Below are positions 1,901 to 42,927 of a stretch of DNA of 64,000 bases, one piece after another. Position numbers and translations under genes: made by a program. The notes under the pieces were generated by a model. It was not told the origin of the DNA and did no database searches. It saw only the letters and a program-made list of their open reading frames with translations. The stretch's first letter is position 1; each line of letters begins with the position of its first letter. The DNA lies in the NCBI GenBank assembly GCA_049513455.1, contig JBEKWB010000015.1, positions 4,029-68,028 on the forward strand. Direction: 5' to 3'. The stretch is from Acidimicrobiales bacterium. Its GTDB lineage: Bacteria > Actinomycetota > Acidimicrobiia > Acidimicrobiales > RAAP-2.

Positions 1901-2485
1901 ATGAGGGCGGCCCGACGAAGACTTGACCGTGCGGCGGTCGTGGAGGCGGCCGAGTTGCTTGTCGATCGTGACGGGGCGGCGCAGCTCACGATGACTGCCC
2001 TGGCCAGTGAGCTCGAGATCCGCGGCCCGTCGCTGTACTCGCACGTGGCGAGCCTCGAGGAGCTGCTGAGCCTGGTGCAGAACCGGGCGCTGGAAGAGCT
2101 CGGCTCGGGCCTTCAGCGCGCCGCGATGGGCCGATCAGGTCCGGACGGCGTCCGGGCGCTGGCGTCGGCACTGCGCACATTCGCCACAAGTCATCCGGGA
2201 CGGTACGACCTCGCCATGAGCAAGCCGATCGACCGACCTGCGATGCAGGTCGCCAGCCTGGCCGCAGGAGAGGCCTTCGTCGCCGTCATCGCGTCCGTCG
2301 GTGTGCAGATGTCCAACGAGCTTGCGTTCTCGTGTCTGGCCACACTGCACGGAGTCCTAACTTTGGATCGTGCCGGTCTGTATCCCCGGACCGAGGTGGA
2401 TGTCGATGCCGTCTACGCGCAAGCAACCGAACTCGTCCTGCACGTCATGGAGCAGGTTGCGAGCGTGCATATTCATGTCGACTGA
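1901..2485 (+). CDS. TetR/AcrR family transcriptional regulator
   Basis: 194-aa ORF. N-terminal HTH LTMTALASELEIRGPSLYSHVASLEELL. Sits directly upstream of, and co-directional with, the binding-protein/oxidoreductase pair. Confidence 0.9.
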   Translation: MRAARRRLDRAAVVEAAELLVDRDGAAQLTMTALASELEIRGPSLYSHVASLEELLSLVQNRALEELGSGLQRAAMGRSGPDGVRALASALRTFATSHPGRYDLAMSKPIDRPAMQVASLAAGEAFVAVIASVGVQMSNELAFSCLATLHGVLTLDRAGLYPRTEVDVDAVYAQATELVLHVMEQVASVHIHVD

Positions 2486-2529: not shown

Positions 2530-3606
2530 ATGCCCGAACCCATAAAGATCGGCTGGCTCGGCGCAGCGCTCGATGGTCCCGATGGCGGCTACGACAAGAT
2601 CCACCGTTTGGCGTTCGACGAGGGGGTCGAATCAGGCCTACTCGATCGGCCGTACGAGTTCGTATTGCACGGCGAGAACGGCCTCCCGAACGGGTCTGCG
2701 AAAAACGCCACCGACGGCTTCAAATACCTCGTCGATGAAGGGTGCATCGGCATAGCGGGCGCCTACAGCTCCGACAACGCCATTACGGTGGCGCCGCTCG
2801 CGAACGACCTCCACGTACCCTTGATCTCCTGGGCCGGGACGGACCGCCTGCAAGGGGAATACTGCTTCAGGCTCGGAAACGGTGATTGCGGGGGCGACGC
2901 CGCGCTGGTCGTGTCCTGGTTGGTCAAGCAGGGCCACGCACGTATCGCCGTGCTGAGCGAGATAGCCCCCAACGGCGAGGAGTACTTCCGCTACTTCCGG
3001 ATGGAGTGCCGGCGGCGCGGCGTGAGTATCGCTGCCGTGGAATCGGTCAGCCAGAGTCCCGAGAACCTCGCCGAGAACCTCGACCATCTCCGTCAGGTCA
3101 ATGCCGATGCCCTCGTCTACATGGGATACGGGATGCTGGCGGCGAAGGGCCTCTTGCGCACGGCCTTGGATCAACTGGCATGGGATCCTCCCCGCATCAT
3201 GAGCACCGCATTCATGTGGTATCTGATGGGCTTCGAGAAGTTCGAAGGCTGGGTCGGCATCGACCAGTTCGACCCGGCGAACGCCCTGGCCCAGCAGTTC
3301 CACGATCACTTCGTCGCCCGCTACGGACAGTCCCCGCCCTTGTGGCCGAACGCCATCCCGGTTCTCGCCTTCGACACCGCCCGCGTGCTCGTCGAGGGCC
3401 TTTTCCGGGCCCCGATCCTGAGCGGACCAGGGCTCAAGGCCGGGCTCGAATCGATCCGGTTCTTGCCCAGTGCCACCGGGGGCTCCCACACCCACATCGC
3501 GTGCGCTCCCTATGAGCACGGCATGTTCCGCGGCGACTGGCTCCTCTATGGCCGCGTCCACAACGGGCAGCTCGAATTCGAGGGTCTGTTCGAGCCGTGG
3601 GAGTGA
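2530..3606 (+). CDS. type-1 periplasmic-binding-protein fold (LivJ/AmiC-like) protein without signal peptide, predicted cytoplasmic
   Basis: In-frame ATG at 2530 preceded by GGAGGA (2518-2523). The protein starts MPEPIKIGWLGAALDG.., directly at the first beta-strand of the PBP1 fold. Also has IGIAGAYSSDN and VPLISWAGTD motifs. The longer 424-aa ORF-track version overlaps the TetR gene and is Arg/Cys-rich junk. Confidence 0.8.
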   Translation: MPEPIKIGWLGAALDGPDGGYDKIHRLAFDEGVESGLLDRPYEFVLHGENGLPNGSAKNATDGFKYLVDEGCIGIAGAYSSDNAITVAPLANDLHVPLISWAGTDRLQGEYCFRLGNGDCGGDAALVVSWLVKQGHARIAVLSEIAPNGEEYFRYFRMECRRRGVSIAAVESVSQSPENLAENLDHLRQVNADALVYMGYGMLAAKGLLRTALDQLAWDPPRIMSTAFMWYLMGFEKFEGWVGIDQFDPANALAQQFHDHFVARYGQSPPLWPNAIPVLAFDTARVLVEGLFRAPILSGPGLKAGLESIRFLPSATGGSHTHIACAPYEHGMFRGDWLLYGRVHNGQLEFEGLFEPWE

Positions 3607-4616
3607 GCACACAGCGAGTCGTGCAATGGACGACAGGGAAGACTGGTCGAGCCGCCGTACGCGCCATAGTCGAGCATCCGAGGCTGACCCTCGTAGGGTG
3701 TTACGCCTGGTCAGCCGACAAGGTGGGTCGTGACGTCGGCGAGCTCTGCGGTATCGACAAAATCGGCGTGTCAGCCACGGACGACATCGACACGCTCCTC
3801 GCTCTCAAGCCTGACTGTGTTGTCTACACGCCGTATCGGCCCGATACCGACCATCTCACGCGGATCCTGGAGTCGGGTAGCAACGTCGTGACATCGATGT
3901 ACCAGCTCACTGGGCGCGGCTATGGCAATGACGCCTACGAGCGAATCGTCGCCGCAGCGGACCGTGGGTTCGCCTCGCTGTATGCGAGCGGTACCTACCC
4001 CGGATATGTCGGCACGGTCGCGCTCGCGCTCACGGCGGTGTCGTCGCGCATCGAGCGGATCACCATGCTCGAATCCGTGGACCTGCGCGGCTACGCGAAC
4101 GAGCCTATGTACCGGGCGATGGGCATCGACCGAGACCCGGCCGACCCCGAGGCCGCGAGATTGATTGCGGCAGCATGTGGATCGTTTCGTGATCAGGTGG
4201 CAGTGATGGCCCATGCTCTTGCGCTCGACCTCGACGAAATCCGCTTCCACGCTGACTTCGCCGTTGCCGATGCGGACACCGACTTCGGCTTCATGACCGT
4301 GGGCGCTGGTCGCGTTGCCGCAATCCGCGGCACCATCGCAGGCTGGGCCGGCGGCCGCCCCCGCATCGAATGCCGCTCAGTTTGGAAGCTCGGCGAGTAC
4401 ACGACTCCCGATTGGCCCGTCGAGCACGGCTATGTGATCGACATCGAGGGCACACCGTCGTTCCGGACCCGCATCGAGCCAGGCGAGCAGTGGAGCGGCT
4501 CGGTGAGCACGGCATTGCCGCTCGTCAACGCCATTCTCGGCGTCTGCGCGGCACCGCCGGGCATCGTCAACTACGGCGAACTCTCTCTTATCCGTGCTGC
4601 GCACGCTGTCCGCTGA
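3597..4616 (+). CDS. DapB-N-like NAD(P)-binding oxidoreductase (dihydrodipicolinate reductase N-domain / amine dehydrogenase-like family)
   Basis: 339-aa ORF. N-terminus RVVQWTTGKTGRAAVRAIVEHPRLTLVGCYAWSADKVGRDVGEL is a Rossmann-type motif. Overlaps the stop of the upstream gene (GTG 3597 or GTGA at 3603-3606). Paralog of 6907-7959. Confidence 0.7.
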   Translation: MGVSTQRVVQWTTGKTGRAAVRAIVEHPRLTLVGCYAWSADKVGRDVGELCGIDKIGVSATDDIDTLLALKPDCVVYTPYRPDTDHLTRILESGSNVVTSMYQLTGRGYGNDAYERIVAAADRGFASLYASGTYPGYVGTVALALTAVSSRIERITMLESVDLRGYANEPMYRAMGIDRDPADPEAARLIAAACGSFRDQVAVMAHALALDLDEIRFHADFAVADADTDFGFMTVGAGRVAAIRGTIAGWAGGRPRIECRSVWKLGEYTTPDWPVEHGYVIDIEGTPSFRTRIEPGEQWSGSVSTALPLVNAILGVCAAPPGIVNYGELSLIRAAHAVR

Positions 4617-4681
4617 CCACTAATCAAGGTTGCGGAGCTTCAGAGACCGCTTCGTAGCCCGAGCGTTTGAGTCGCTCGTGC

Positions 4682-4722
4682 GACCCGTGGAGATGCGTCC
4701 GACGGAAGCCACTCCACGGGTC
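4682..4722. repeat. perfect 11-bp inverted repeat (GACCCGTGGAG ... CTCCACGGGTC) with a 19-nt loop
   Basis: Read directly: arms at 4682-4692 and 4712-4722. Lies 65 nt downstream of the stop at 4616. No T-tract follows, so it is not a classic intrinsic terminator. Confidence 0.6.
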
Positions 4723-4823
4723 CGATGTCGCCAAATATCACGGACGTCCGCGCCTGCCGGGATTTGGGGAGCAGATCGGATACCAAGAAATAGCCACTGA
4801 CCAGTAACTTTCCGCCGAACGAG

Positions 4824-4853
4824 TGCGCCCCTCGGGAGTCGAACCCGAAACCT
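4824..4853 (-). other. 3' fragment of a tRNA gene (variable loop + T-arm + acceptor 3' strand), tRNA-Lys-like; not a complete tRNA
   Basis: The reverse complement reads AGGTT TCGGG TTCGACT CCCGA GGGGCGC A. No complementary 5' acceptor strand, D-arm or anticodon arm lies upstream. 32/33 identical to 10219-10251. Confidence 0.6.
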
Positions 4854-5047
4854 AGTGGTTGTTTTGCGGGTTGAAGTCGGTGTCTTCCGTACAGGTGCCG
4901 ACATGGGTAATGCCTACGTGTGGTAGGACCCGAATGCTCAACAGACCAATGGCAATGGGGACAGTCAGAGGAGGAGCCGGCCCTCGAAGAGGCGCGGCGG
5001 TTCGACAAGGTGGTCATCGACGCTCATCAGTATGATGTCGTCTACTT

Positions 5048-5638
5048 TCATGGTTCTCCTGCTTTGGCCGGTGGGGTGAGGACGCGCATGACAATCTCCA
5101 CGACTGTGTCCATCCGCTTCGCGTGGTCGGCGGCGAGAGGGACGAAGATCCGTGCGAGAAGCGTCCCGTGGAGGACGTCGAATATCTCGTCGACGTCGAG
5201 GCCGGGTTCGGCGCCGGCGGCTTCGATGATGGCGTAGAACTGAGGCCGGACCGAGAATTTGAGCCACTTGGTCGGGGGCGGCGGTTCGTGCTGGTACGCG
5301 GCGATGAGGCCGGGTATCGCGGCCCGGGCGGCGGGGGTGCCGAGGCTGCGGTGGAAGCCCTCGATCAGCCGGCTCAGGTCGGCACGCAGGTCGCCAGTCG
5401 CCTCGACGGCGATTTCGGTGAGGGTCGAGAAGGCGGCATCCTCGATGAGCGCGAGGCGGGTCGGCCAGCGCCTGTAGATGGACGGGGCGCTGGTGCCGGA
5501 GCGGCGGGCGATCTCCTGCACTGTCGCGGCGTTGAAGCCCTCCTCGGCAAGGATCTGCCGGGTCGCCTCCAGGACTGCCGGTTCGATCTTCGGATCGCGC
5601 GGCCGGCCCAGGGTCGCTGGTTCGATGGTGGTGCTCAT
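5048..5638 (-). CDS. TetR/AcrR family transcriptional regulator
   Basis: 196-aa ORF. HTH ATVQEIARRSGTSAPSIYRRWPTRLALI. Divergent from the P450 operon. Confidence 0.9.
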   Translation of the reverse strand: MSTTIEPATLGRPRDPKIEPAVLEATRQILAEEGFNAATVQEIARRSGTSAPSIYRRWPTRLALIEDAAFSTLTEIAVEATGDLRADLSRLIEGFHRSLGTPAARAAIPGLIAAYQHEPPPPTKWLKFSVRPQFYAIIEAAGAEPGLDVDEIFDVLHGTLLARIFVPLAADHAKRMDTVVEIVMRVLTPPAKAGEP

Positions 5639-5722
5639 GCGCTCCGTAGGGACTTGACAGCAGATACGTTTGGAAGTCTAACGTAAGAGTGTAGAACGAA
5701 ACTAGGGGTACGAAGGGGGAGC

Positions 5723-6919
5723 GTGGTGCGAGCGGAGTGTCCTGTGACGAAGCTCGACTTCGTCAACTTGGTCGCGGCCTTTGGTGGGATGGGTTCCAGT
5801 GAGCAGTCGCAGCCGGCGAATAGCGCGCTGCTTGAGCAGGGCGCGGTGCGAATCGGCGATGCGGTCATGATCAACACCCGGGCGCTCGTCGACGAGGTAT
5901 TGCGCAACCCGGGTTTGTACTCCTCGGAAGATCTAGTCGAGCAGGGAAACACCCTGCCGTTGATCCCGCTGAACATCGACCCGCCCGAGCACGTCGGCTA
6001 CCGGAAGCTGCTCGACCCGCTCTTTGCTCCGCGCCGGATTGACGCGCTGGAGGCCGACATCGCCGAGCGGGTGAACCACTTCATCGACGCGTTCATCGAT
6101 CGCGGCTCATGCAACTTCACCGCCGAGCTCGCCGAGCTGTTCCCCTCGTCGGTGTTCCTCGGGATGATGGGCCTCCCGTGGGAGGAGCTGGAGACGCTTG
6201 TCTCGATGCGGGACGGCCTGCTCCGGCCCGGCGACCACACCATGGCGCCGGAGGAACGGTCGGCGATCCAACGGGAAACCGCGACACGGGTCTACGCATA
6301 TTTCGACGCGATCCTCGAGGCGCGTGCCGCCGATCCGCGGGAGGACATCCTGTCGCACTTCGTCAGCCTCGAAGCTAACGGGGGCCGCCTGACGCGAGAC
6401 GAGGTGCTGTCGATTTGTTTCGTGCTGCTCACCGCCGGCCTCGACACCGTCACCGATTCGCTCACGTGCTTCTTCGCCTTCCTGGCGCAGAACCCCGAGC
6501 GTCGGCGACATATCGTCGAGGATCCCAACGTCATCCCAGGAGCGGTCGAGGAGCTCCTCCGCTGGGCGACCCCGGTGCCCTCGGTGGTGCGCTGGGTCCG
6601 GGAGGACACGAACCTCGGTGGCGAGACGATCGGTGCCGGGAACCACGTGATGGTCAACCTCGGTGCGGCGAACCTGGACCCGGCGCAGTTCGAGGCCCCG
6701 ATGGAGGTCCGCTTCGATCGGGAGGCGAATCGCCACCTCGCCTTCGGGGGTGGGGTGCACCGGTGCCTGGGCTCGCACCTGGCTCGCCGTGAGCTCCGAA
6801 TCGCGCTGCAGGAGTGGCACCGGCGCATCCCCGACTACACGCTTGCTCCCGACTACGAGGTCACGTACCTACCCCCGCTGCGGTACGTGCCGGACCTCCA
6901 GTTGACGTGGCCGGCCTGA
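5723..6919 (+). CDS. cytochrome P450
   Basis: 398-aa ORF. Heme-thiolate loop FGGGVHRCLGSHLARRE, EELLRW (ExxR), I-helix LLTAGLDT. RBS AGGGGGA at 5714-5720. No ferredoxin or ferredoxin reductase gene is adjacent. Confidence 0.92.
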   Translation: MVRAECPVTKLDFVNLVAAFGGMGSSEQSQPANSALLEQGAVRIGDAVMINTRALVDEVLRNPGLYSSEDLVEQGNTLPLIPLNIDPPEHVGYRKLLDPLFAPRRIDALEADIAERVNHFIDAFIDRGSCNFTAELAELFPSSVFLGMMGLPWEELETLVSMRDGLLRPGDHTMAPEERSAIQRETATRVYAYFDAILEARAADPREDILSHFVSLEANGGRLTRDEVLSICFVLLTAGLDTVTDSLTCFFAFLAQNPERRRHIVEDPNVIPGAVEELLRWATPVPSVVRWVREDTNLGGETIGAGNHVMVNLGAANLDPAQFEAPMEVRFDREANRHLAFGGGVHRCLGSHLARRELRIALQEWHRRIPDYTLAPDYEVTYLPPLRYVPDLQLTWPA

Positions 6920-7959
6920 CGCGGGTCGTCCAGTGGGCGACCGGCACGACTGGTCGCTTGGCCCTGCGCGCAGTGATCGACGCCCCCGACCTCGAACTGG
7001 TCGGCGTGCGGGTCTACGACCCCGCCAAGGTCGGGCTCGACGCCGGCGACCTCGTCGATCGGCCGGCGACCGGTGTCACCGCCACGGATGCAAAGCGGGC
7101 GATCCTCGACCTCGCCCCGGATGTCGTCCTCTACATGGGTCGGGTCGAGCAGGACCTGAAGGGCTGTTTTGCTGATGTGGTCGACCTGCTTGGTGCGGGC
7201 ATCGATGTCATCACGACCGGGAGCTCGTTCATCGACACCCGGGCCTTCGACCAGGCCCGGCACGGGGCGATCGCCGAGGCCTGTGAACGGGGCGGTGGCA
7301 CCTTCCTCGGTGTCGGTCTCTTCCCCGGCTTCTGGGGCGAAGTCATCGCACCGATACTCTCCCGCCTGGCCTTCACCTGCGATCGCATCTCTGTTCGGGA
7401 GACGCTGTCGTACGCCAGTTACCCGAGCGCCCAGCTGCTCTTCGACATCATGGGCTACGGCCACACGGCCGACTCGGACGTTCCGATGATGAGCGATCCA
7501 TCGCGGGCCGGCGGCGCCTTCAACGGCACGGCTACCGTTCTGGCTAAGGCACTCGGCCTCGAACTCGCCGGACTGGATCCCTACCGCGAGGTCGCCGTCA
7601 CCGAGCGCAAGCTGAACGTGGCCGCCGGCACGATTCCCGCCGGGACGGTCGGGGCCATGAAGCTCGGCGTGCGTGCCGACTGCGGCCCGGTGACCATCGA
7701 GGTCGAGCATGTGACCTGGATGGCACCCGACGTCGAGCCGACCTGGTCGGCCGGCGGGGAGGGCTACCACATCGAGTTCGGTGGGGCGCCGTCGCTGCGC
7801 TGCAGCCTCGAGCTCGGAATCCGCGGCGAGGACCACACCGAGATGGGCTGCCTGGCCACCGCGATGCACGCCGTTCACGCGATCCCCTCCGTGCGAGCAG
7901 CGAGCCCCGGTGTCCTCGACCTCGCCGACGTGACCACCTTCGTGGGGAGACTGACATGA
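6907..7959 (+). CDS. DapB-N-like NAD(P)-binding oxidoreductase, paralog of 3597-4616
   Basis: In-frame GTG at 6907 gives VAGLTRVVQWATGTTGRLALRAVIDAPDLELVGVRVYDPAKVGLDAGDL, colinear with the 3597 protein. Overlaps the P450 stop by 13 nt. The 381-aa ORF-track version would overlap the P450 by about 100 nt. Confidence 0.7.
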   Translation: MAGLTRVVQWATGTTGRLALRAVIDAPDLELVGVRVYDPAKVGLDAGDLVDRPATGVTATDAKRAILDLAPDVVLYMGRVEQDLKGCFADVVDLLGAGIDVITTGSSFIDTRAFDQARHGAIAEACERGGGTFLGVGLFPGFWGEVIAPILSRLAFTCDRISVRETLSYASYPSAQLLFDIMGYGHTADSDVPMMSDPSRAGGAFNGTATVLAKALGLELAGLDPYREVAVTERKLNVAAGTIPAGTVGAMKLGVRADCGPVTIEVEHVTWMAPDVEPTWSAGGEGYHIEFGGAPSLRCSLELGIRGEDHTEMGCLATAMHAVHAIPSVRAASPGVLDLADVTTFVGRLT

Positions 7960-9071
7960 GCAACGTGACGCCGGCCCGTATTGGTGTCCTGATCGACTAC
8001 CTCGATCCCAACGGCGGCTACGACGAGAACATCCTGCCTTCGCTCGGGCTCGTCGCCGACGAGTTCGCCGAGAAGGGCCTGCTCGAGCGCCCGGTCGAGT
8101 TCGTCGTCCGCGCCGTACAGGGCCTCCCGAACGGCACTTTCCGAGCCGTGCGTGACGCGTTCCACGAACTTCTCGACGAGGGCGCGCTCGTGATCTTCGG
8201 TCCGTGGGTCTCGGAGAACGGCGTCGCCCTACGGCCCTACGTCGAGGCGGCCGCCGAGGCGGCCTGCATCACGATGGGCGCCTCGGAGTCGATGCTCGGC
8301 GAATGGGTCTTCGGGCTCCCCTCCGGTTCGATGGAGGAAGAGCCCATCATCATGGCCACGGTCGCAGCGCTCGACGGCTGCCGATCCGTGGGCATCGCCT
8401 TCGAGGACTCCCTCATCGGCAACGAGTACCTCCGCACCACCCGGGTGGCTTGCAAGGACTGCGGGCTGCGCATCACCGCCGAGGTGCCGATCCCCCAAGT
8501 CGAGGCCGAGAAACAGGCGGCGATGCAGGTCCTCGCCGCCAACCGACCCGACGGCATCCTCCACGTGGGGTTCGGGCTCGGCATCCCCGGGATGAATGCA
8601 GCGCTCGAGGCGATCGGGTGGATGCCACCCCGCTACACCACTACCGCGTTCGAGTTCGCCGCCACCAACGACTGGTGGCGCGAGCAACTGGCCGGGTGGG
8701 TCGGCCTCGACCAATACGACGAGCGGAACCAGGTGGCCCGAAGGTTCCTCGACCGGTTCGAGGCCCGCCACGGCCGCCGGCCCGAGTACTTCTTCCCGCC
8801 CTACTGCTACGACGTAGGCAGGATGATGCTCCTCGCCATCGCCGGCGCGAAGCCACTCACCGGCGCCGGCGTCAAAGACGCCCTCGAGAAAATCAAGATG
8901 CTCCCGGCCGCCTCCGGCGCTCCGGGGACCCGACTGCGGTTCGGCCGCTACATCCGCCACGGGTGGATGGGTTCAGAGTTCCTCGTCGCCCGGCGCGTCC
9001 TTCCTGACGGCAGCCGCAGCGTCCTACACGCGACCATCGAGGGCCTCATCGATACACCGCCCGGCACGTGA
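7956..9071 (+). CDS. type-1 periplasmic-binding-protein fold (LivJ/AmiC-like) protein without signal peptide, predicted cytoplasmic
   Basis: 371-aa ORF starting MSNVTPARIGVLIDYLD (no hydrophobic leader). ATGA overlap with the upstream gene. Distant paralog of 2530-3606 (shared GLL-RP-EFV, GLPNG, GWVG-DQ-D blocks). Confidence 0.8.
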   Translation: MSNVTPARIGVLIDYLDPNGGYDENILPSLGLVADEFAEKGLLERPVEFVVRAVQGLPNGTFRAVRDAFHELLDEGALVIFGPWVSENGVALRPYVEAAAEAACITMGASESMLGEWVFGLPSGSMEEEPIIMATVAALDGCRSVGIAFEDSLIGNEYLRTTRVACKDCGLRITAEVPIPQVEAEKQAAMQVLAANRPDGILHVGFGLGIPGMNAALEAIGWMPPRYTTTAFEFAATNDWWREQLAGWVGLDQYDERNQVARRFLDRFEARHGRRPEYFFPPYCYDVGRMMLLAIAGAKPLTGAGVKDALEKIKMLPAASGAPGTRLRFGRYIRHGWMGSEFLVARRVLPDGSRSVLHATIEGLIDTPPGT

Positions 9072-9143
9072 CAGGGCACGGTCGATCGCCCGGTGTAGAT
9101 CGCGTTCAGTGAGGTCGAAACCAACAAAGGAGGAAAGACGATC

Positions 9144-10139
9144 ATGGTGCCCGAAAACATCGACTACGAGATGCACCTCGAAACCCCGACACTTGACCAC
9201 TACCGGTTGGAGTGGGCGCCTTCCCAGCACGTCCGGCTGGGCGGGATGTGGGCCCCAGGGATCGTGACTGACGCGTCAGGGCAGGACTACCTGGGTCTGC
9301 GCGGCTGGAGCGACTTTATCGGGGGCATGACCCATACGGTGTCGCCGTTCTGCGGCTTTCGCGCGCTTCGAAAGGACCTCTACGAGGACCCACCGCACCT
9401 GTACGCCGAATACTCGCACCACGACTGGTTCGAGCCCTTCCAGTACGACGATACCAACGGGCAACTGACGATGAGCTACGACAGCGGGCGCTTGCAACGA
9501 GACGTTGACGGCTTACACTGGTACGACGCTGACGGCCGCTGGGAGCTCCACGGCGAAACCATCAGCAAGATCTTCGTGCTCCACGTTCCTCGCCAGGACG
9601 GCATCGAGAACGAGGTCTACTACCGCCACGAGCTACTGAAGGCGCGTGGAACCGTCAGCGGCGCATCCGTCGAGGGTTACCTCCACCAGGACTACTGCTA
9701 CGGGCCACCCGGCTTCACCTACACCCAGCTGCCAATCGCCCGCCAGCTCGAAGGCTTATGGGTCTCCTGGATCCACGAATACACCGACGGTGAGGTGGGC
9801 GGCGGCTGTTTTTGGCAGGGCCGTGACAGCCCGAACTTCGGCCCGGGCTACCTCTTGCATGATGGCGAAACGACTGTGTACAGCGATGTAGCAGCCAAGT
9901 TGACCTTCAACGATGACGGTAAGCCCACGGCCATGCGTGTTGACGTCGGGGGCCAGTCGTTCGACTTCACCTTCGAATCGGTAGCGGGGCCACTCCATTT
10001 CATGGGCCGACTGGCCAGTAGCTCGTCGGGCAAAGAGGCCATTAGGAGCTGGTGCTGGATCGAGTACCCCAACGGCATGTTGTCACCGGAGATTCTCGAC
10101 ATGATGGGCCAGAAGTTCCACGTCGTGTGGGCGCGATAG
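9144..10139 (+). CDS. hypothetical protein, Trp/Tyr/His-rich, function unknown
   Basis: 331-aa ORF with a strong RBS AAAGGAGGA 6-14 nt upstream of ATG 9144. Coding-like GC3 bias. I recognise no family motif. Last gene of the P450 operon. Confidence 0.65.
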   Translation: MVPENIDYEMHLETPTLDHYRLEWAPSQHVRLGGMWAPGIVTDASGQDYLGLRGWSDFIGGMTHTVSPFCGFRALRKDLYEDPPHLYAEYSHHDWFEPFQYDDTNGQLTMSYDSGRLQRDVDGLHWYDADGRWELHGETISKIFVLHVPRQDGIENEVYYRHELLKARGTVSGASVEGYLHQDYCYGPPGFTYTQLPIARQLEGLWVSWIHEYTDGEVGGGCFWQGRDSPNFGPGYLLHDGETTVYSDVAAKLTFNDDGKPTAMRVDVGGQSFDFTFESVAGPLHFMGRLASSSSGKEAIRSWCWIEYPNGMLSPEILDMMGQKFHVVWAR

Positions 10140-10221
10140 AGCGGTTGGGAGGAGACTCTCGTGCACAGCAAAGCTGCCGACCTAAACAGGCGTAACGCCA
10201 AACGGGGTCCAGGCCTTCGAG

Positions 10222-10263
10222 TGCGCCCCTCGGGATTCGAACCCGAAACCTGCGGATTAAGAG
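10222..10263 (-). other. 3' half of a tRNA-Lys(CUU)-like gene (anticodon loop to discriminator); not a complete tRNA
   Basis: The reverse complement reads CTCTTAA TCCGC AGGTT TCGGG TTCGAAT CCCGA GGGGCGC A. The sequence 5' of the loop (TCCGA) cannot pair with TCCGC, and no D-arm or 5' acceptor strand is present. Confidence 0.6.
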
Positions 10264-10540
10264 TCGGAAGCAGGGGAGTCCGTGGAGTGCGTCCGAGTCT
10301 GTGACCTGCGGTTACGTCTAACGATAGTCCATTAGAATTGGCTGAATCCACCCTGTTTTCTTGAGATAGTGGGTTGGATTCTGGGGAGAAAATTGTGGGA
10401 TGACGCTCCGGGGTCGAGGGTTTCTCCCAGGTGGGAGCACTCGACCTCTTCGCAGCAACCTCTTGCGACGTCCAGGAATTAGGTGTATCCGGGTCGCGTT
10501 GGACAGGGTCTCTCCCGTGGGGGAGTGTCTCCGTTATCGG

Positions 10541-11248
10541 TCATGACCCGGTCGTCTTTCGAGGTACGCGCCTCGTGGGTCTCGACGAATGCGTATTCCC
10601 GGTCGGGCTCGCCAGGCGCCGTTCCAGGTCCGTGAAGGTTCTGATCAGCTCGGGTGCCTCGAAGGCACGATTTCTGCGTCCTACGTTGACCTGCGCCAGG
10701 ACGCCGGCTCCGACGAGTCGGGTGATCGCCTGGTTCGTCGCTTGAAACGTGCGCCCGATGAGTGCGGCAGCTCCATTGACGGTGACGATCGGCGCTCCTG
10801 GCAAGGAGCGGATCAACCGGTCGGTGGCAGATCCCGCACGCACCTGACCCAGCGCGGCTCGCCATTTTTCCTGCAGCCGGACGACCTGTTCCTCGAACTC
10901 GATTGCGTCATCTATCGCCCGACGTCCCGCCGTCGCGAAGAGACCCACCCACTTGTTCATTCCCTCCACCGCCGCCGGTGAGGACGGAGCTCCGATGTAG
11001 CGAGTAGCCGTGAGTGGGCTGATGCAGTCCTTGGACCACGTCGCGAGCAGGTCGGTCAGCAGGTCCTCGACGGCTTCGTGAGGCGGGGGAACGAACGCGG
11101 CAGAGCAGGGGTTGTAGCTGCTCCCACCGATCCAGATCTGTTCTCCTCTGAGCCGTCCTCCGTACTCGGCGGCGGTCAGGGAGTGACCGAACAGCGCCTG
11201 GACCGCTCGTCTTCCAACCGGCCCGCCGGAATCGACCGAACAGCCCGA
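10541..11248 (-). pseudogene. decayed Fic/DOC-family gene (core Fic motif missing, no start codon, upstream in-frame stop)
   Basis: Manual translation of the frame containing the 142-aa ORF extends upstream without a start: ..AVQALFGHSLTAAEYGGRLRGEQIWIGGSSYNPCSAAFVPPPHEAVEDLLTDLLATWSKD.., which resembles a Fic N-domain. It then jumps to the C-terminal winged-helix part (APIVTVNGAAALIGRTFQATNQAITRLVGAGVLAQVNVGRRNRAFEAPELI). No HPFxxGNGR block is present. TGA at 11249-11251 closes the frame upstream. Confidence 0.55.
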
Positions 11249-11510
11249 TCATCCCAGGCTGGGTAACCACGCCAGGGTGTCGAGGTCGGCGAGCTCCGTC
11301 ACTCCGCTTGGTCACGCATCTATCGACATTATCTTGACCATGGCTCAGAATGACGAACACGAAGCGGGTGCCCCAAACGGCTCGTTGTCGCCACCGCCCG
11401 GCAGCACCGACCTGGGGTATCGCCTGCGACGGGCCATTTCCAACCACGGGATTCATTGGCGCGCTAACTGATGGAGTGTTAGGAAATACGGGACGGCCAA
11501 GTACCCCGAG

Positions 11511-12548
11511 GTGACGAGGACTGTGGATCTGGATCCATCAAACGAACAGAGTCTCCTCATTGAGGCCTTCGACGCGCTGTACGCCAAGTGGGCGACTCCC
11601 GAACGGGTGCGCGGAGCGGAGCCAGTTGGCTTCGACGCCGATCTGTGGCAGCAGCTGCTGCAGATCGGTGCGCTCGGGATGGGTGTCCCAGTGGAGCAAG
11701 GCGGCATGGGCGCGTCGCTACTGGACCTGGAGCTCGTGGCGGAGCGTCACGGGCGCCATCTCGCCCCGGCGCCCATGCTCGAATCACAAGCCGCGGCCCG
11801 ATTGCTGGCCCGGTGCGAGGGTGCCGCCGCGTCAGACCTCCTCGCAACCATCATGGCCGGGGAGCAGATGGTGACTCTGGCGCTGCACCCCGTCCGGGCA
11901 GAATCGCTGACCATGGTGCCCGGCGGCTCCGTGGCCGATGTCGTCCTCGCCCTCGACGGTGACCGAGTGCTCGGCGTGCCGCTGGCAGGCAACCGGCGAT
12001 CGGTACCCAATTTGGGCAGCCTATCTCTGAGCGACGTTCTGGTGCCTGCCACGACTATGGAACTCGCCCGTGGCGCGGACGCTCGTACGGTCTACGCTTC
12101 CGCTGCCGACGAATGGATGGTGTTAATGGGGGGTGCACTCGCCGGATTAGCCCAGCGCGCGCTCGAAATCGGAGTGGATTACGTGAAGCAACGAGAGGCG
12201 TTCGGTGTGCCGATCGGCTCCTTCCAGGGGGTGGCTCATCCGCTGGCGGACTCGGCCACCGCCGTGGATGGGGCGTTGTTGTTGGCGCGTAAGGCGGCTT
12301 GGGCTGGTGAGGCCTCGCCCGATCGGAGCGCCGAGTTGGCGGCCATGTCCTTCGCTTTCGCGTCCGAAGCGGCACGCGATGCGAGTTACCGGAGCCTCCA
12401 CTTTCACGGTGGGTACGGATTCATGATGGAGTACGACGTCCAGCTCTACTTCCGGCGTGCCAAGGCATGGCCGGCGGTCTTGCGCGAGCCGCGGCGGACG
12501 TACGAGCTGGTAGCCAGTCGGCGGCGGGGGTGGGGGAATGGACTTTGA
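11511..12548 (+). CDS. acyl-CoA dehydrogenase family protein, short beta-type subunit candidate
   Basis: 345-aa ORF with the ACAD fold (GMGVPVEQGGMG, AFGVPIGSFQGVAHPLAD, FHGGYGF). The C-terminus (QLYFRRAKAWPAVL) lacks the (Y/I)xGGTxEIQ/EGT segment. 11-nt overlap with the next ACAD. Confidence 0.8.
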   Translation: MTRTVDLDPSNEQSLLIEAFDALYAKWATPERVRGAEPVGFDADLWQQLLQIGALGMGVPVEQGGMGASLLDLELVAERHGRHLAPAPMLESQAAARLLARCEGAAASDLLATIMAGEQMVTLALHPVRAESLTMVPGGSVADVVLALDGDRVLGVPLAGNRRSVPNLGSLSLSDVLVPATTMELARGADARTVYASAADEWMVLMGGALAGLAQRALEIGVDYVKQREAFGVPIGSFQGVAHPLADSATAVDGALLLARKAAWAGEASPDRSAELAAMSFAFASEAARDASYRSLHFHGGYGFMMEYDVQLYFRRAKAWPAVLREPRRTYELVASRRRGWGNGL

Positions 12549-13701
12549 GATCGAAGAGAGAGGCGAGGCACTGCGCCAGGAGGTGCGTAAGTTCCTCTCT
12601 GAGGCATTGACGCCCGACGTGAAGGAGAAGATTCGGCGCACGGGTACCCACCACGACGACGGGTTCCAGAAGGCTCTGGCTGCCCGCGGTTGGATGGCCC
12701 CGGGCTGGCCTGTCGAGCTGGGGGGCCAGGGGCAGGACCCGCTCGATCTGCTGGCTTTCAACGAGGAACTCGAGCTGGCAGGCGCGCCCATGTATGGCCC
12801 CCAGACCACGCTGATGGTAGCCAACGCAGTCGCCCAGTTCGGTACCGAGCAGCAGAAGGCAGACATAATCGAGCCATCGCTGCGCGGTGCGGTGGTATTC
12901 GTTCTCGGATTCAGCGAGCCCGGTTGCGGGTCCGATGTCGCGGCTGCCAAGACACGGGCCGAGCGCGAGGGTGACGAGTGGATCATCAATGGCGCCAAAA
13001 TGTTCACCACGAACGCGCACGTGGGTGACTGCGTGCTGTTGCTGGCCCGGACCGATCCGAACCGTCCCAAGCACCAGGGACTCACGATGTTCGTGGTCCC
13101 GCTGGACAGCCCGGGCATCGAGATCCGTCCGATCTACACGCTCTCAGGTGAGCGCACGAACCTGACCTTTTACACCGACGTGCGGGTGCCGGACTCGCTC
13201 CGGATCGGTGGGGTGAACGACGGCTGGCGGGTCCTCACCTTCAGCCTGGCCGAGGAACGCTCGGGAGCCTTCGGAGGAGAGTCGGAACGTCTTTTGCAGC
13301 GGATGGAGGCATGGGCGGAAACCGGTGACGCGGCGGGCCGGCCTCACCACGAGAGCCCTGATGTCCGAGAGCGCCTCGGACGGGCGGCAACCGAGAACGA
13401 AGTGATTAGGCTCCTGTCGTGGCGCAACGCGTGGATGAGTGCGCGCGGTCGGCTGCCCGGGGTCGAGGGCTCCATGGCCAAGCTCTTCTCGTCCGAGGCG
13501 ATCACACGCCAGGGTGCGGATCTGGTGGACATGCTCGGCCCCGACGGCATCAGGCTCCAGGGGGATCCGGATGCGCCGGCCGATGGTGAGGCCGAGTGGG
13601 CCCTGCGCTACGCGCTGGGCACGACGACCTACGGCGGGACGAGTGAGATACAACGTGGCATCATCGCTGAGCGTGGGCTTGGTCTGCCCCGGTCTCGCTA
13701 A
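12538..13701 (+). CDS. acyl-CoA dehydrogenase, alpha-type partner of 11511-12548
   Basis: 387-aa ORF with FSEPGCGSDVAAAKTRA, WIINGAKMFTTNAH and TYGGTSEIQRGIIAERGLGLPRS. Confidence 0.9.
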   Translation: MDFEIEERGEALRQEVRKFLSEALTPDVKEKIRRTGTHHDDGFQKALAARGWMAPGWPVELGGQGQDPLDLLAFNEELELAGAPMYGPQTTLMVANAVAQFGTEQQKADIIEPSLRGAVVFVLGFSEPGCGSDVAAAKTRAEREGDEWIINGAKMFTTNAHVGDCVLLLARTDPNRPKHQGLTMFVVPLDSPGIEIRPIYTLSGERTNLTFYTDVRVPDSLRIGGVNDGWRVLTFSLAEERSGAFGGESERLLQRMEAWAETGDAAGRPHHESPDVRERLGRAATENEVIRLLSWRNAWMSARGRLPGVEGSMAKLFSSEAITRQGADLVDMLGPDGIRLQGDPDAPADGEAEWALRYALGTTTYGGTSEIQRGIIAERGLGLPRSR

Positions 13702-28263: not shown

Positions 28264-29649
28264 TTACAAGGAGTTCAGCTGCGCCACCTGCGCTGCGGAC
28301 AGCGGGACGACGTTCTTGGGGTTGCAGTTCCAGATGGACTGCGTGGGATCGGTGAGCTTCTTGTCGTAGACGATCCCCTTGGTCGTCAACTGGAGCATGG
28401 CGAAACACGGGGAAGGTTGTGGGTTCTCGTTGGAGAGCGTCAACTTGGCGATGGGTGCCTCTATGCCCCCGGCGTCCCAGCTCTTTGTGTCGGCGGCGTG
28501 GGTCAGCACGCAGCTCACCGTGAGGTTGCTGGCGCCGCAGGCCGAGGCCGCCTTGGCCCACAGCAGCCACGCCTCGGCCGATTCCTCGTCGTCGAAGTCG
28601 ATGGTGTCGCCCTTGGAGTATTTGTGCATGGTGGTGACCAGCTCTTCGGTCGAGGGGTTCTGCGAGGCCTGCGCGACGGGCCACCACTGCGTCTCGACGT
28701 AAACGGGGGGCAGGCTGGGGTTGGCCGCCACGGCCTGCTGCGTCTGGGTGTTGTCGAACTGGACTCCCAGCAAAACGAAGGCGGGGTGATACCCGGCAGT
28801 GGCCATCGCCTGGGCGAAGGGGGTGAAGTTACCGCTGTCGGCGGGCCACAGGGCCTGGACCCCCTTTTGCTGGTACTGCTCGACGTAGGGCGCCCAGTTC
28901 TCCACCGAAGTCGGGGGCTCGGGGAAGTCCACGACCTTCCAACCCTGTGCCTCGGCGCCGAACTCGTACTTTGTTTCGGACTGGAGGATGGAGGGGGAGT
29001 CTTCCGCACCCATGCCGGCTTCCTTGACCGCTTTCGGGTAGGCCTTGGCCAAAGCCCCGAACCATCCCGAGGAAATGGAGTCCACGTTGAGCCCGGTCGG
29101 GTCGACCTGGTCGGTGGCAAGATCGGAGGCGTTCGAGACGACGTAGCCGCTGAGATTTCCCAGCCCGCACTTCTCACGGATGGGCACGGACGGCTGGTCG
29201 AGGGCCATGCCACCACCGACGGCCATGAAGTCGCTCTGGCAGGCCGCCGTCGCTTGCTGCGCCGCGTTGAACAGCGCGGCGTCGCGGTTGTCGATCACGA
29301 TTTTGCGGCCGTTGATGCCCCCCGCCGCGTTGCACCAGTCCGCGAACGCGGTGGCCTGCTGGACGAATTCGATCTCGAGTCCGGGGACAATGGTGTTGGA
29401 GGCGTCGTTGAACACGGCGATGTTGATGGTCTTGTCGCCCACACCGCGCACCGAGGAGGCGCCGCCCGGACCCGGTTCGCAAATTTTGCCGACCCCGGGC
29501 CACACGCCGCTCGAACTCGACGCCGAGGTCGCCGCCGCAGCGGTCGTCGACGAGGCTGCGACATAGGTCCCGGCGATCATCATGGTCGCCAGGGCCAGCG
29601 GCAGTAGGGACTTTCGAAGCTGGATCAGCCCTTTGCAGAACATCCTCAT
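28264..29649 (-). CDS. secreted solute-binding protein, Leu/Ile/Val-type (PBP1) fold, 8 conserved Cys
   Basis: ATG at 29649 (MRMFCKGLIQLRKSLLPLALATMMIAGTYVAASS..) after AAGGGGGG, with a signal-like hydrophobic leader. About 78% identical to 41524-42927. The ORF-track 516-aa version is an upstream extension. Confidence 0.85.
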   Translation of the reverse strand: MRMFCKGLIQLRKSLLPLALATMMIAGTYVAASSTTAAAATSASSSSGVWPGVGKICEPGPGGASSVRGVGDKTINIAVFNDASNTIVPGLEIEFVQQATAFADWCNAAGGINGRKIVIDNRDAALFNAAQQATAACQSDFMAVGGGMALDQPSVPIREKCGLGNLSGYVVSNASDLATDQVDPTGLNVDSISSGWFGALAKAYPKAVKEAGMGAEDSPSILQSETKYEFGAEAQGWKVVDFPEPPTSVENWAPYVEQYQQKGVQALWPADSGNFTPFAQAMATAGYHPAFVLLGVQFDNTQTQQAVAANPSLPPVYVETQWWPVAQASQNPSTEELVTTMHKYSKGDTIDFDDEESAEAWLLWAKAASACGASNLTVSCVLTHAADTKSWDAGGIEAPIAKLTLSNENPQPSPCFAMLQLTTKGIVYDKKLTDPTQSIWNCNPKNVVPLSAAQVAQLNSL

Positions 29650-29720
29650 ACCCCCCTTTGTGATCGGATCGGTAACCCGGCCTGAGATCGGCTGCAGCAT
29701 CGTAGCTGACCGCGCCGCTA

Positions 29721-29734
29721 CTTGTCCGTACAGC
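29721..29734. promoter_or_regulatory. site of the recurrent palindrome: CTTGTCCGTACAGC (11/14 to CTTGTCCGGACAAG)
   Basis: About 72 nt upstream of the SBP start. Contains the exact 10-mer TGTCCGTACA, also present at 39225-39234 and 39315-39324 and as its reverse complement at 34330-34339. Confidence 0.5.
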
Positions 29735-29814
29735 GGAACCTCGTCCCTGTTGCCTTCCCGTGCTCGCGCGCTCGTGCGGTCGTGGGATCGGTCGATGGTT
29801 CGCTCCTCAGTCAC

Positions 29815-41523: not shown

Positions 41524-42927
41524 TCACAGCGAGTTTATCTGCGCCTGTTGCGCTGCGGTCAGTTGGACGAGACCCTTGGGATTGCAGTTCCAGATGGACT
41601 GGGTGGGCCGGGTGAGCGCCTTGTCGTAGACGATCCCCTTGGCTTCCACCCTGAGCATGGCGAAACATGGAGAGGGCTGGGGGTCCTCGTTGGACAGCGT
41701 CAATCGTGCAATGGGCGCCTGAATGCCTCCGGCGTCCCAGTTCTTCGTGGCTGTGGCGTGGCTCAGGACGCAGGTCACCGTGAGGCTGCTGCCGCAGGCC
41801 GAAGCCGATTTGGCCCACAGGAGCCACCCCAGTGCCCCGACCTCATTATCGAAGTCGATGGTGTCGCCCTTGGCGTATTTGTGCATGATGGTGACGAGCT
41901 CCTCCGTCGAGGGATTCTGCGCAGCCATCGTGAGTGGCCAAAACCCCGTATAGATGTAGACCGGGGGCAGGCTGGGGTTCGCAGCCACGGCTTGCTGCGT
42001 CTCAGAGTCGGCGAATTGGGGCCCCAATATGACGAAGGCGGGGTGGTACCCGGCCGTGGTCATCGCCTGGGCGAAGGGAGGGAAGTTGGAGGCGTCGGCC
42101 GGCCAGAGCGCCTGGACCCCCTTTTGCTGGTAGTCCTCGACGTAAGGTGCCCAGTTCTCGACCGAGACCGGGGGCTCGAGGAAGTCGACCACCTTCCAAC
42201 CCTCAGCCTCCGCTCCGAACTCGTCCTTCGTCTCCTCCTGGAGGACCGACGGGGTGTCGGCGCCACCCATGCCGGCCAACGTGACCGCCTTCGGGTAGGC
42301 CCGGGCCAACGCAGCGAACCACCCTGCGGTAACCGAGTTCGTGTTGGTGCCCCCTGGGTCGACCTGGTCGGAGGCAAGAATCGATGCATTCGAGACGACA
42401 TAGCCGGTGATCTGTCCCAGCCCGCACTTCTCACGGATCGGGACGGCTGACTCGTCGAGGGCCATGCCGCCGCCGACCGCCATGAAGTCGCTCTGGCAGG
42501 CCGCCGTTGCCTCTTGCGCCGCGTTGAACAGCGCCGCGTCGCGGTTGTCGATCACGATCTTACGCCCGTTGATGCCCCCCGCGGCGTTGCACCAGTCTGC
42601 GAACGCAGTGGCCTGCTGGACGAACTCCACCTCGAGTCCCGGTTGGATGGTGTTCGCGGCGTCGTTGAACACGGCGATGTTGACGGTCTTATCGCCCACA
42701 CCGCGCACCGAGGATGCACCGCCGGGTCCCGGTTCGCATATTTTGCCGACCCCGGGCCAGACGCCGTTCGAGGCGGCGCTCGACGCCAAAGTCCGGCTGG
42801 CCGACGTCGCCGCGCCAGCGGTGGTGGACGCCACGGCCACGAACGTCGCAGTGGCGGTGATGGTGGCCATGGCTATCTGCAGCACCGACCTTCGAAGTTT
42901 GCGTAACCCAGTGCAGGACAATTTCAC
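41524..42927 (-). CDS. secreted solute-binding protein, Leu/Ile/Val-type (PBP1) fold, 8 conserved Cys; paralog of 28264-29649
   Basis: 467-aa ORF. GTG start after AAAGGGGAGGG. Hydrophobic leader IAMATITATATFVAVAS. Long identical blocks with the other copy (GVWPGVGKICEPGPGGASSVRGVGDKT, FVQQATAFADWCNAAGGINGRKIVIDNRDAALFNAAQ). Confidence 0.85.
   Translation of the reverse strand: MKLSCTGLRKLRRSVLQIAMATITATATFVAVASTTAGAATSASRTLASSAASNGVWPGVGKICEPGPGGASSVRGVGDKTVNIAVFNDAANTIQPGLEVEFVQQATAFADWCNAAGGINGRKIVIDNRDAALFNAAQEATAACQSDFMAVGGGMALDESAVPIREKCGLGQITGYVVSNASILASDQVDPGGTNTNSVTAGWFAALARAYPKAVTLAGMGGADTPSVLQEETKDEFGAEAEGWKVVDFLEPPVSVENWAPYVEDYQQKGVQALWPADASNFPPFAQAMTTAGYHPAFVILGPQFADSETQQAVAANPSLPPVYIYTGFWPLTMAAQNPSTEELVTIMHKYAKGDTIDFDNEVGALGWLLWAKSASACGSSLTVTCVLSHATATKNWDAGGIQAPIARLTLSNEDPQPSPCFAMLRVEAKGIVYDKALTRPTQSIWNCNPKGLVQLTAAQQAQINSL

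Follow-up and report, generated by a model that had tools for sequence, protein, structure and literature searches.

Two gene modules in a 64,000-nucleotide stretch of an Acidimicrobiales bacterium (GCA_049513455.1, contig JBEKWB010000015.1, positions 4,029 to 68,028 of the forward strand; hereafter the window, numbered from its first letter) encode binding proteins of the Peripla_BP_6 family, BP1 and BP2, which lack an export leader and adjoin NAD(P) oxidoreductases, OR1 and OR2. Both binding proteins (BPs) are members of a leaderless clade and are, on the evidence of their sequences, presumably cytoplasmic. Module 2, which a first-pass annotation of the window had placed in a cytochrome P450 (P450) operon, is a real, conserved cassette linked to that P450. 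The BP–oxidoreductase (OR) pair, however, is a clade-specific arrangement and not the defining unit of either family. Our preferred reading, to which we assign a probability of about 0.4, is that the BPs are cytosolic ligand-binding accessory proteins for pathways that oxidize hydrophobic substrates. The genes of the two modules are as follows.

1901..2485, + strand: TetR1, TetR-family regulator upstream of module 1 (Pfam TetR_C_33, E 6e-12; weak TetR_N)
2530..3606, + strand: BP1, leaderless type-I binding protein, 358 aa (Pfam Peripla_BP_6, PF13458, E 5e-17)
3597..4616, + strand: OR1, NAD(P) oxidoreductase of the native amine dehydrogenase / 2,4-diaminopentanoate dehydrogenase (2,4-DAPDH) superfamily (Pfam DapB_N + DAP_DH_C)
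5048..5638, - strand: TetR2, TetR-family regulator divergent from the P450 operon (Pfam TetR_N + TetR_C_11)
5723..6919, + strand: class-I cytochrome P450 (Pfam p450, 87 bits; FGGGVHRCLG heme-thiolate motif)
6907..7959, + strand: OR2 (ORa type), amine dehydrogenase (AmDH)-like oxidoreductase (Pfam DapB_N + DAP_DH_C)
7956..9071, + strand: BP2, leaderless type-I binding protein, 371 aa (Pfam Peripla_BP_6, E 2e-19; orthologs 77-90% identical)
9144..10139, + strand: DUF7064 / AttH-like all-beta protein, final gene of the module 2 operon (Pfam DUF7064)

An open reading frame (ORF) check together with Pfam searches placed all eight genes where the first-pass annotation had them, and its Peripla_BP_6, DapB_N, P450 and TetR assignments were right at the Pfam level; against PF13458, BP1 and BP2 score 63 and 70.7 bits (gathering cut-off 31.7). 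The modules are paralogous, as it had suggested, with 32% identity between BP1 and BP2 (E 4e-52) and 31% between OR1 and OR2 (E 2e-34), and the gene order is BP then OR in module 1 and OR then BP in module 2. The overlapping stops and starts that it had described are also present: the BP1 stop overlaps the OR1 start in GTGGGAGTGA, the GTG start of OR2 lies 13 nt inside the end of the P450 gene and ATGA is common to the OR2 stop and the BP2 start. Strong GGAGG-type ribosome-binding sites precede BP1 and the DUF7064 gene. For the P450, 5744 may be the true start rather than 5723, since gene callers give it 391 aa in metagenome copies, and OR1 may start at GTG 3603. Identical copies of the cassette, a TetR gene divergent from P450-OR-BP-DUF7064, are found on seven JGI metagenome contigs, where the last four genes are called at 391, 350, 371 and 331 aa. 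Around both TetR genes, no operator-like inverted repeats, sigma-70 promoters or terminators were found above chance.

The missing leader was assessed by start-codon logic and a hydropathy heuristic. For BP2, no in-frame ATG, GTG or TTG occurs across the 136 codons back to the upstream stop. The ATG of BP1 at 2530 is preceded at 7 nt by a GGAGGA Shine–Dalgarno sequence, and the sole upstream alternative, GTG 2332, would add 66 Arg-rich residues that overlap the TetR gene and contain no hydrophobic core (maximum Kyte–Doolittle value -0.25). Most of the orthologs listed have the same short form (357-358 aa for BP1, ~370-372 aa for BP2). Two further Peripla_BP_6 substrate-binding proteins (SBPs) in the window, at 28264-29814 (-) and 41524-42927 (-), do carry hydrophobic leaders, in agreement with the contrast originally drawn between secreted and leaderless proteins; they are unmatched by a profile of the leaderless clade (E > 0.5) and therefore represent a different, exported branch. 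BP1 scores 403 bits against the same profile. An exhaustive HMMER search of 1.84 billion representative sequences, in which relatives were counted as 50%-identity representatives, recovered 754 clade members at E<=1e-3 and 139 at E<=1e-30. Almost all of the full-length representatives have 345-397 aa, with no more than a few residues ahead of the first strand (xxIRVGxLxD) and without a hydrophobic N-terminal region. It could still be argued, from the extendable BP1 frame, that the BPs are ordinary exported SBPs with mis-annotated starts and missed signal peptides; given the closed BP2 frame, the character of the BP1 extension, the strong Shine–Dalgarno sequence and the leaderless relatives, we regard this as extremely improbable.

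The AlphaFold2 (AF2) model of BP2 (pLDDT 95) has the two-lobe Venus-flytrap fold. Aromatic-acid and LivJ/K binding proteins head its Foldseek matches, with TM scores of 0.8 to 4mpt, 4q6w and 3td9; the ligands of the PDB fold matches are 3-hydroxybenzoate, 4-hydroxybenzoate, p-coumarate and Leu, at 15-18% sequence identity. AmiC (1pea), which the first-pass annotation had named as the best-known cytoplasmic protein of this fold, is not a close relative: it ranks only 50th in Foldseek and is not among the 60 profile matches listed, and no AmiR-type partner was seen in the window or the Pfam-annotated loci. Clade members are annotated at source as branched-chain amino acid ABC transporter binding proteins, an assignment that is unlikely to be correct for the leaderless clade; no ABC permease or ATPase gene was seen among the annotated neighbours in the window and the annotated loci. 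One metagenomic representative, P0129 (800 aa), is a tandem fusion of two leaderless Peripla_BP_6 domains, and other long representatives have extensions without a domain match. A 1072-aa ORF spanning ORa, BP and ORb (a further OR paralog, see below) at L031:8975-12193 (L numbers denote the sampled loci) was read as a fusion and rejected as an indel/frameshift artefact of a long-read metagenome-assembled genome (MAG), because pieces of each gene fall in different frames in the domain mapping. Because clade members, 45-61% identical to BP2, also occur beyond Actinomycetota, in L029, L035, L049 (Novosphingobium), L054 (a Gammaproteobacteria MAG) and L037 (Binatia), the sequences suggest occasional horizontal transfer of BP cassettes. 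A tblastn search of PLSDB for plasmid carriage of BP2 gave zero hits, and no named homolog checked by accession came from a model strain.

The partner oxidoreductases are not what their N-terminal domain would indicate. In full-length alignments, the best PDB match of OR1 is 6g1h/6g1m, and OR2 matches 7xdu and 6g1h; these entries were deposited as "dihydrodipicolinate reductase", and 6g1h/6g1m is, we take it, the native amine dehydrogenase AmDH4. The position of the catalytic Glu (P3, E102 of AmDH4) is occupied by Tyr in OR1 and Ser in OR2, and in 27 of 27 OR-family members from related loci by Y, S, T, A, L or G, never by Glu, with the N-terminal W-x-T-G-x-x-G nucleotide-binding motif retained in the ORs. 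OR1 and OR2 reach 87 and 77 bits against NCBIfam ornith_Ord, short of its equivalog cut-off of 400, and 34.5 and 21.4 bits against DapB TIGR00036 (cut-off 122), where the match is limited to the N-terminal 90-100 residues. By sequence, the ORs are placed in the native amine dehydrogenase / 2,4-diaminopentanoate dehydrogenase superfamily; they are not DapB, nor is it likely that they are amine dehydrogenases. The label "DapB-N-like" of the first-pass annotation is thus correct for the domain and misleading for the protein, which is a DAP_DH_C-bearing, Glu-less AmDH relative. Group G5 of the native amine dehydrogenase family mostly lacks the catalytic Glu, has no known function and showed no activity on the substrates assayed; genomic-context analysis of the family gave no clear clue to metabolic function (PMC11164908). 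Synteny with binding-protein or P450 genes is not mentioned in the supplements of that work (PMC11164908). The ORs share with G5 the DapB_N + DAP_DH_C architecture and the missing P3 Glu, a likeness by feature only and not by the classification of that paper. A role for the OR as redox partner of the P450 was also considered and rejected by inference, since the protein has a Rossmann NAD(P) domain only and no flavin or Fe-S motif.

Conservation of the pairing was examined in 80 genome loci retrieved with an 11-sequence BP profile, 80 metagenome loci retrieved with BP1 and several contigs found by exact look-up, onto which homologs of the window proteins were mapped with phmmer. An OR gene adjoins the BP gene at 20 of the 29 BP2 orthologs (58-86% identical), and a P450 gene lies within 5 kb at 13 of the 29. 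For BP1 orthologs (77-94% identical), the corresponding figures are 6/74 among loci with at least 400 bp of sequence downstream and 8/26 among loci of >=9 kb; for a third BP clade, group 2, which is 43-50% identical to BP2, they are 1/51 and 39/51. The first-pass annotation had treated the BP–OR pair, repeated twice, as a possible functional unit; the pairing is conserved for module 2 and not for module 1, and a general BP–OR unit is rejected on the BP1 and group-2 counts. The two families are nevertheless linked repeatedly, through three OR paralog groups, three BP clades and both gene orders.

The commonest layout at BP2 orthologs is a divergent TetR gene followed by P450, ORa, BP and ORb. 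ORb shares 35-39% identity with OR2 and is the third of the OR paralogs; an OR gene lies on both sides of the BP gene in ~10 of these loci. TetR2 orthologs are divergent from the cassette in L009, L010, L011, L014, L031 and L167-169. The positional counterpart in relatives of the BP-to-OR order of module 1 is the BP2-to-ORb step, and in the window the AttH-like gene fills the place of ORb. Across seven complete cassette loci, mean identity to the window is 80% for BP2, 68% for the P450 and 69% for OR2 (ORa). BP2 orthologs are still 77-81% identical where the P450 and ORa are absent, and at least seven orthologs in this range have no OR gene; the neighbour of the BP gene there is a DUF7064 gene, an mce operon or both. 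The BP1–OR1 pair, with the OR directly downstream, is found in L087, L088, L098, L101, L105 and L106, and a TetR1-type gene also lies upstream in four of the six (L087, L088, L105 and L106). Other BP1 orthologs are flanked by Amidohydro_2, acyl-CoA synthetase, enoyl-CoA hydratase, SDR, acyl-CoA dehydrogenase (ACAD), P450, luciferase-like and HIBADH-like genes. In an Acidimicrobiia MAG (L086:7001-9922), a BP1 ortholog with 86% identity is followed, in translational coupling, by a HIBADH-type NAD_binding_2 dehydrogenase and then by a zinc-type alcohol dehydrogenase; a dehydrogenase partner is kept there, with a fold other than that of the OR. Conversely, ~19 OR-family genes in the sampled loci, often near P450s, have no BP gene, and at least one OR-family gene is present in 34 of 84 sources (83 loci plus the window).

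The group-2 operon runs, behind a divergent TetR gene, through genes for a VWA protein, a MoxR/CbbQ AAA protein, the BP, an AveC-like membrane protein, an SDR, a P450 and an aldehyde dehydrogenase; the AveC_like protein is integral to the membrane, with at least five transmembrane segments. It recurs in many Mycobacterium, Nocardia, Frankia and Acidimicrobiia genomes (L034-L083, e.g. L055:6642-16084), and L035 is the sole group-2 locus with a BP–OR pair. We know of no description of this VWA-MoxR-BP-AveC operon.

The remaining genes of module 2 and its surroundings point towards the oxidation of hydrophobic compounds. The solved structures nearest to the P450 are CYP143 (E 1.5e-60), CYP101 and CYP125/142. 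No Cys-rich small ORF is present at 4600-5060 or 10130-11520, in accord with the statement in the first-pass annotation that the P450 has no adjacent ferredoxin or reductase. The gene at 9144-10139, which the first-pass annotation had left as "unknown", is present, and its product probably has a fold of the AttH/hydratase/pericyclase type. Its AF2 model (pLDDT 92) matches AttH (2ich), kievitone hydratase (7a0q) and the decalin-forming Diels–Alderases Fsa2 and CghA in Foldseek with probability 1.0. The E value against 2ich is 8e-9, but TM scores for these matches reach only 0.41-0.47, at root-mean-square deviations of 9-12 Å, and the model would suggest that its domain orientation probably differs from that of the AttH-fold structures. 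Members of the AttH-type fold act on hydrophobic polyenes, isoprenoids or polyketides. One DUF7064 homolog bears the UniRef name "AttH domain-containing protein", and a DUF7064 gene lies <=2 kb from the BP2 ortholog in 6 of 29 loci. Homologs occur widely in Mycobacterium, for example in M. intracellulare and M. simiae.

Downstream, the window holds ACAD pairs, enoyl-CoA hydratases, an Amidohydro_2 protein, an acyl-CoA synthetase and an alcohol dehydrogenase. The first two ACAD genes, at 11511-13701, overlap, and the first lacks a middle-domain Pfam match; heteromeric alpha/beta ACADs that degrade the side chains of steroids or branched lipids show this pattern. Further ACADs, enoyl-CoA hydratases, Amidohydro_2 and acyl-CoA synthetase genes extend up to ~22 kb. 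Only overlapping ORFs occur in the ~1.3 kb that separates the DUF7064 gene from the first ACAD gene (10140-11500). Pfam gave no match for the one that was tested, 10908-11456 (-), and this interval may be a decayed gene or may not code for protein. Elsewhere, BP2 orthologs lie between a GntR/FCD regulator and a run of mce genes (MlaD/Mce4_CUP1) in L022:9025-19685 and L028:9045-19480, and also in L001 and L020, with no space for yrbE permease genes between the BP gene and the mce run. In Nocardia bovistercoris, BP-OR-SDR-P450 genes precede a complete yrbE-mce operon. ACADs, enoyl-CoA hydratases, acyl-CoA synthetases and Amidohydro_2 proteins occur around both BP clades as well as in the window. 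Common to the BP family is its setting among P450s, dehydrogenases, acyl-CoA enzymes, TetR/GntR regulators and the mce genes of lipid import.

On these grounds we favour a role for the BPs as cytosolic accessory proteins. The ligand-delivery or sensing function suggested in the first-pass annotation would accord with this genomic setting. The leaderless clade of the LivJ/Peripla_BP_6 family would have departed from ABC transport, leaving stand-alone Venus-flytrap proteins in the cytoplasm that serve actinobacterial oxidation cassettes; their substrates could be lipid-, terpenoid- or steroid-like, or aromatic or aliphatic acids and CoA esters. Module 2 would be a TetR-controlled operon in which the P450 hydroxylates the substrate, the Glu-less OR takes the C-OH/C=O so formed, or a C=N, as its target, and the AttH-like protein hydrates or rearranges the product. 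BP2 would bind a poorly soluble substrate or intermediate and present it to these enzymes, and it may be a stoichiometric partner of the ORs in this module. A C-OH/C=O or C=N group in what the P450 takes up or releases is the probable target of the ORs, which are unlikely to work as amine dehydrogenases. Module 1 (TetR-BP1-OR1) would be a smaller version, limited to close relatives. Several points weigh against the proposed accessory role. An OR neighbour is missing from most BP1 orthologs and from nearly all BPs of group 2; therefore, a specific BP–OR complex is not the general mode of the family. The sampled loci are phylogenetically related, so that the counts are not independent events, and no natural BP–OR fusion, which would be Rosetta-stone evidence, was found among the clade representatives and loci. 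The ligands of the closest relatives by structure are small polar or aromatic acids and not lipids. Finally, because BP orthologs hold 77-81% identity while their neighbours change, the BPs may bind a common metabolite or a protein instead of pathway-specific substrates.

Other explanations share part of this evidence. BP2 could be an obligate subunit of an OR-BP(-OR) complex, with the flytrap supplying the substrate site lost together with the Glu. The ATGA and GTGA overlaps at the junctions, the OR-BP-OR sandwich in ~10 loci, the adjacency of an OR in 20 of 29 cases and the absence from all ORs of the Glu that binds amine or ammonia fit such a complex, as does the position of BP2 as the most conserved member of the cassette, which is expected of a hub subunit. 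Nevertheless, at least seven BP2 orthologs (77-81% identical) have AttH-like or mce genes beside them and no nearby OR, 68 of 74 BP1 orthologs have no OR neighbour, ~19 sampled OR-family genes have no BP and no fusion protein was seen, which makes an obligate heteromer doubtful. The BP and OR might equally be independent proteins of the same pathway, co-transcribed in catabolic islands, the BP being an enzyme or a storage or buffering protein; that the pair is seen twice in the window would then be a consequence of the many copies of both families in these genomes. The variety of BP partners (OR, HIBADH-like, SDR, enoyl-CoA hydratase, acyl-CoA synthetase, Amidohydro_2 and MoxR/VWA/AveC-like), the frequency of OR genes (34 of 84 sources) and the different gene order of the two modules are all as expected from mere neighbours. 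However, the 69% adjacency at BP2 exceeds the few percent that a rough hand estimate allows by chance (~1 stand-alone OR per 85 kb sampled), the adjacency recurs with three OR paralog groups and three BP clades, and the junctions are translationally coupled, so that we consider this account unlikely as well.

A sensor function is the remaining alternative: like AmiC, the BP would control the operon by sequestering a TetR/GntR or other signalling protein, and would not serve the enzymes. Its leaderless type-I fold is that of AmiC, a TetR or GntR gene adjoins the BP gene in many loci, and the BP is more conserved than the enzymes and persists across different enzyme contexts. Yet TetR and GntR/FCD regulators have ligand-binding domains of their own, no ANTAR/AmiR-type partner is present in the window or the Pfam-annotated loci, and AmiC itself ranks only 50th among the fold matches. 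Moreover, the BP gene of module 2 is part of the enzyme operon, and its translational coupling is to an enzyme gene, not to that of the regulator. Such a sensor seems to us quite improbable. The cytosolic accessory role also has a wider and more speculative form, which we consider unlikely: a dedicated cytosolic Venus-flytrap family of Actinobacteria and a few Proteobacteria, derived from an ABC-transporter binding protein that came to reside in the cytoplasm, might act as soluble substrate carriers or obligate subunits for P450s and Glu-less ORs, linking lipid import at the membrane (Mce or AveC-like proteins) to oxidation in the cytosol as a bacterial counterpart of fatty-acid-binding and sterol-carrier proteins.

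All of the component families are known, and so are cytoplasmic binding-protein folds, as in AmiC and the effector domains of LacI-type repressors. The first-pass annotation had not recognized a cytosolic BP plus dehydrogenase as a described unit, and our literature search, which covered cytoplasmic Peripla_BP_6, DAP_DH_C, DUF7064 and operons of P450, DapB and SBP genes, likewise found no description. In the literature searched, the leaderless clade, the placement of its genes within operons of P450, CoA-enzyme and mce genes and their recurrent coupling to Glu-less AmDH relatives appear to be undescribed. A census of SBPs flagged predicted-cytosolic SBP-fold proteins, ~1% of those retrieved, for manual curation (PMC9602780). 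The leaderless BPs make up a clade of considerable size and good conservation, associated with P450 and lipid-catabolic operons of mycobacteria and related bacteria, and the BP/P450 context is the first functional clue for the Glu-less amine dehydrogenase relatives. Should delivery or sensing of hydrophobic substrates prove to be their role, the BPs would be of use in de-orphaning the P450s and mce systems of mycobacteria and could offer ready-made ligand-binding scaffolds for biosensors.

The two modules share features with several known systems. With the Peripla_BP_6 SBPs LivJ/LivK and the aromatic-acid binding proteins (4q6w, 4ey3, 4f8j and 3td9), they share the family and the two-lobe cleft (TM scores of 0.7-0.82); those proteins, however, are exported and feed ABC transporters, whereas the BPs are leaderless, only 15-18% identical to them and without an adjacent permease or ATPase. 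The amide sensor AmiC of Pseudomonas aeruginosa is likewise a stand-alone type-I fold without a signal peptide, presumably cytoplasmic and encoded in a catabolic operon. It sequesters the antiterminator AmiR, whereas no ANTAR/AmiR protein was seen among the Pfam-annotated neighbours of the BPs, and the BP partners differ from those of AmiC: they are oxidoreductases, P450s and TetR/GntR regulators, with no aliphatic amidase operon among the annotated neighbours. Like class-I P450 operons of the CYP143, CYP101 and CYP125 type, module 2 has a divergent TetR gene and downstream dehydrogenases; it differs from them in having no adjacent ferredoxin or reductase and in the binding-protein gene embedded within it. 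Eukaryotic fatty-acid-binding proteins and SCP2 are soluble carriers that hand hydrophobic substrates to oxidizing enzymes. Unrelated to the BPs in fold and ancestry, they would be their counterparts by analogy only, in the role that we propose.

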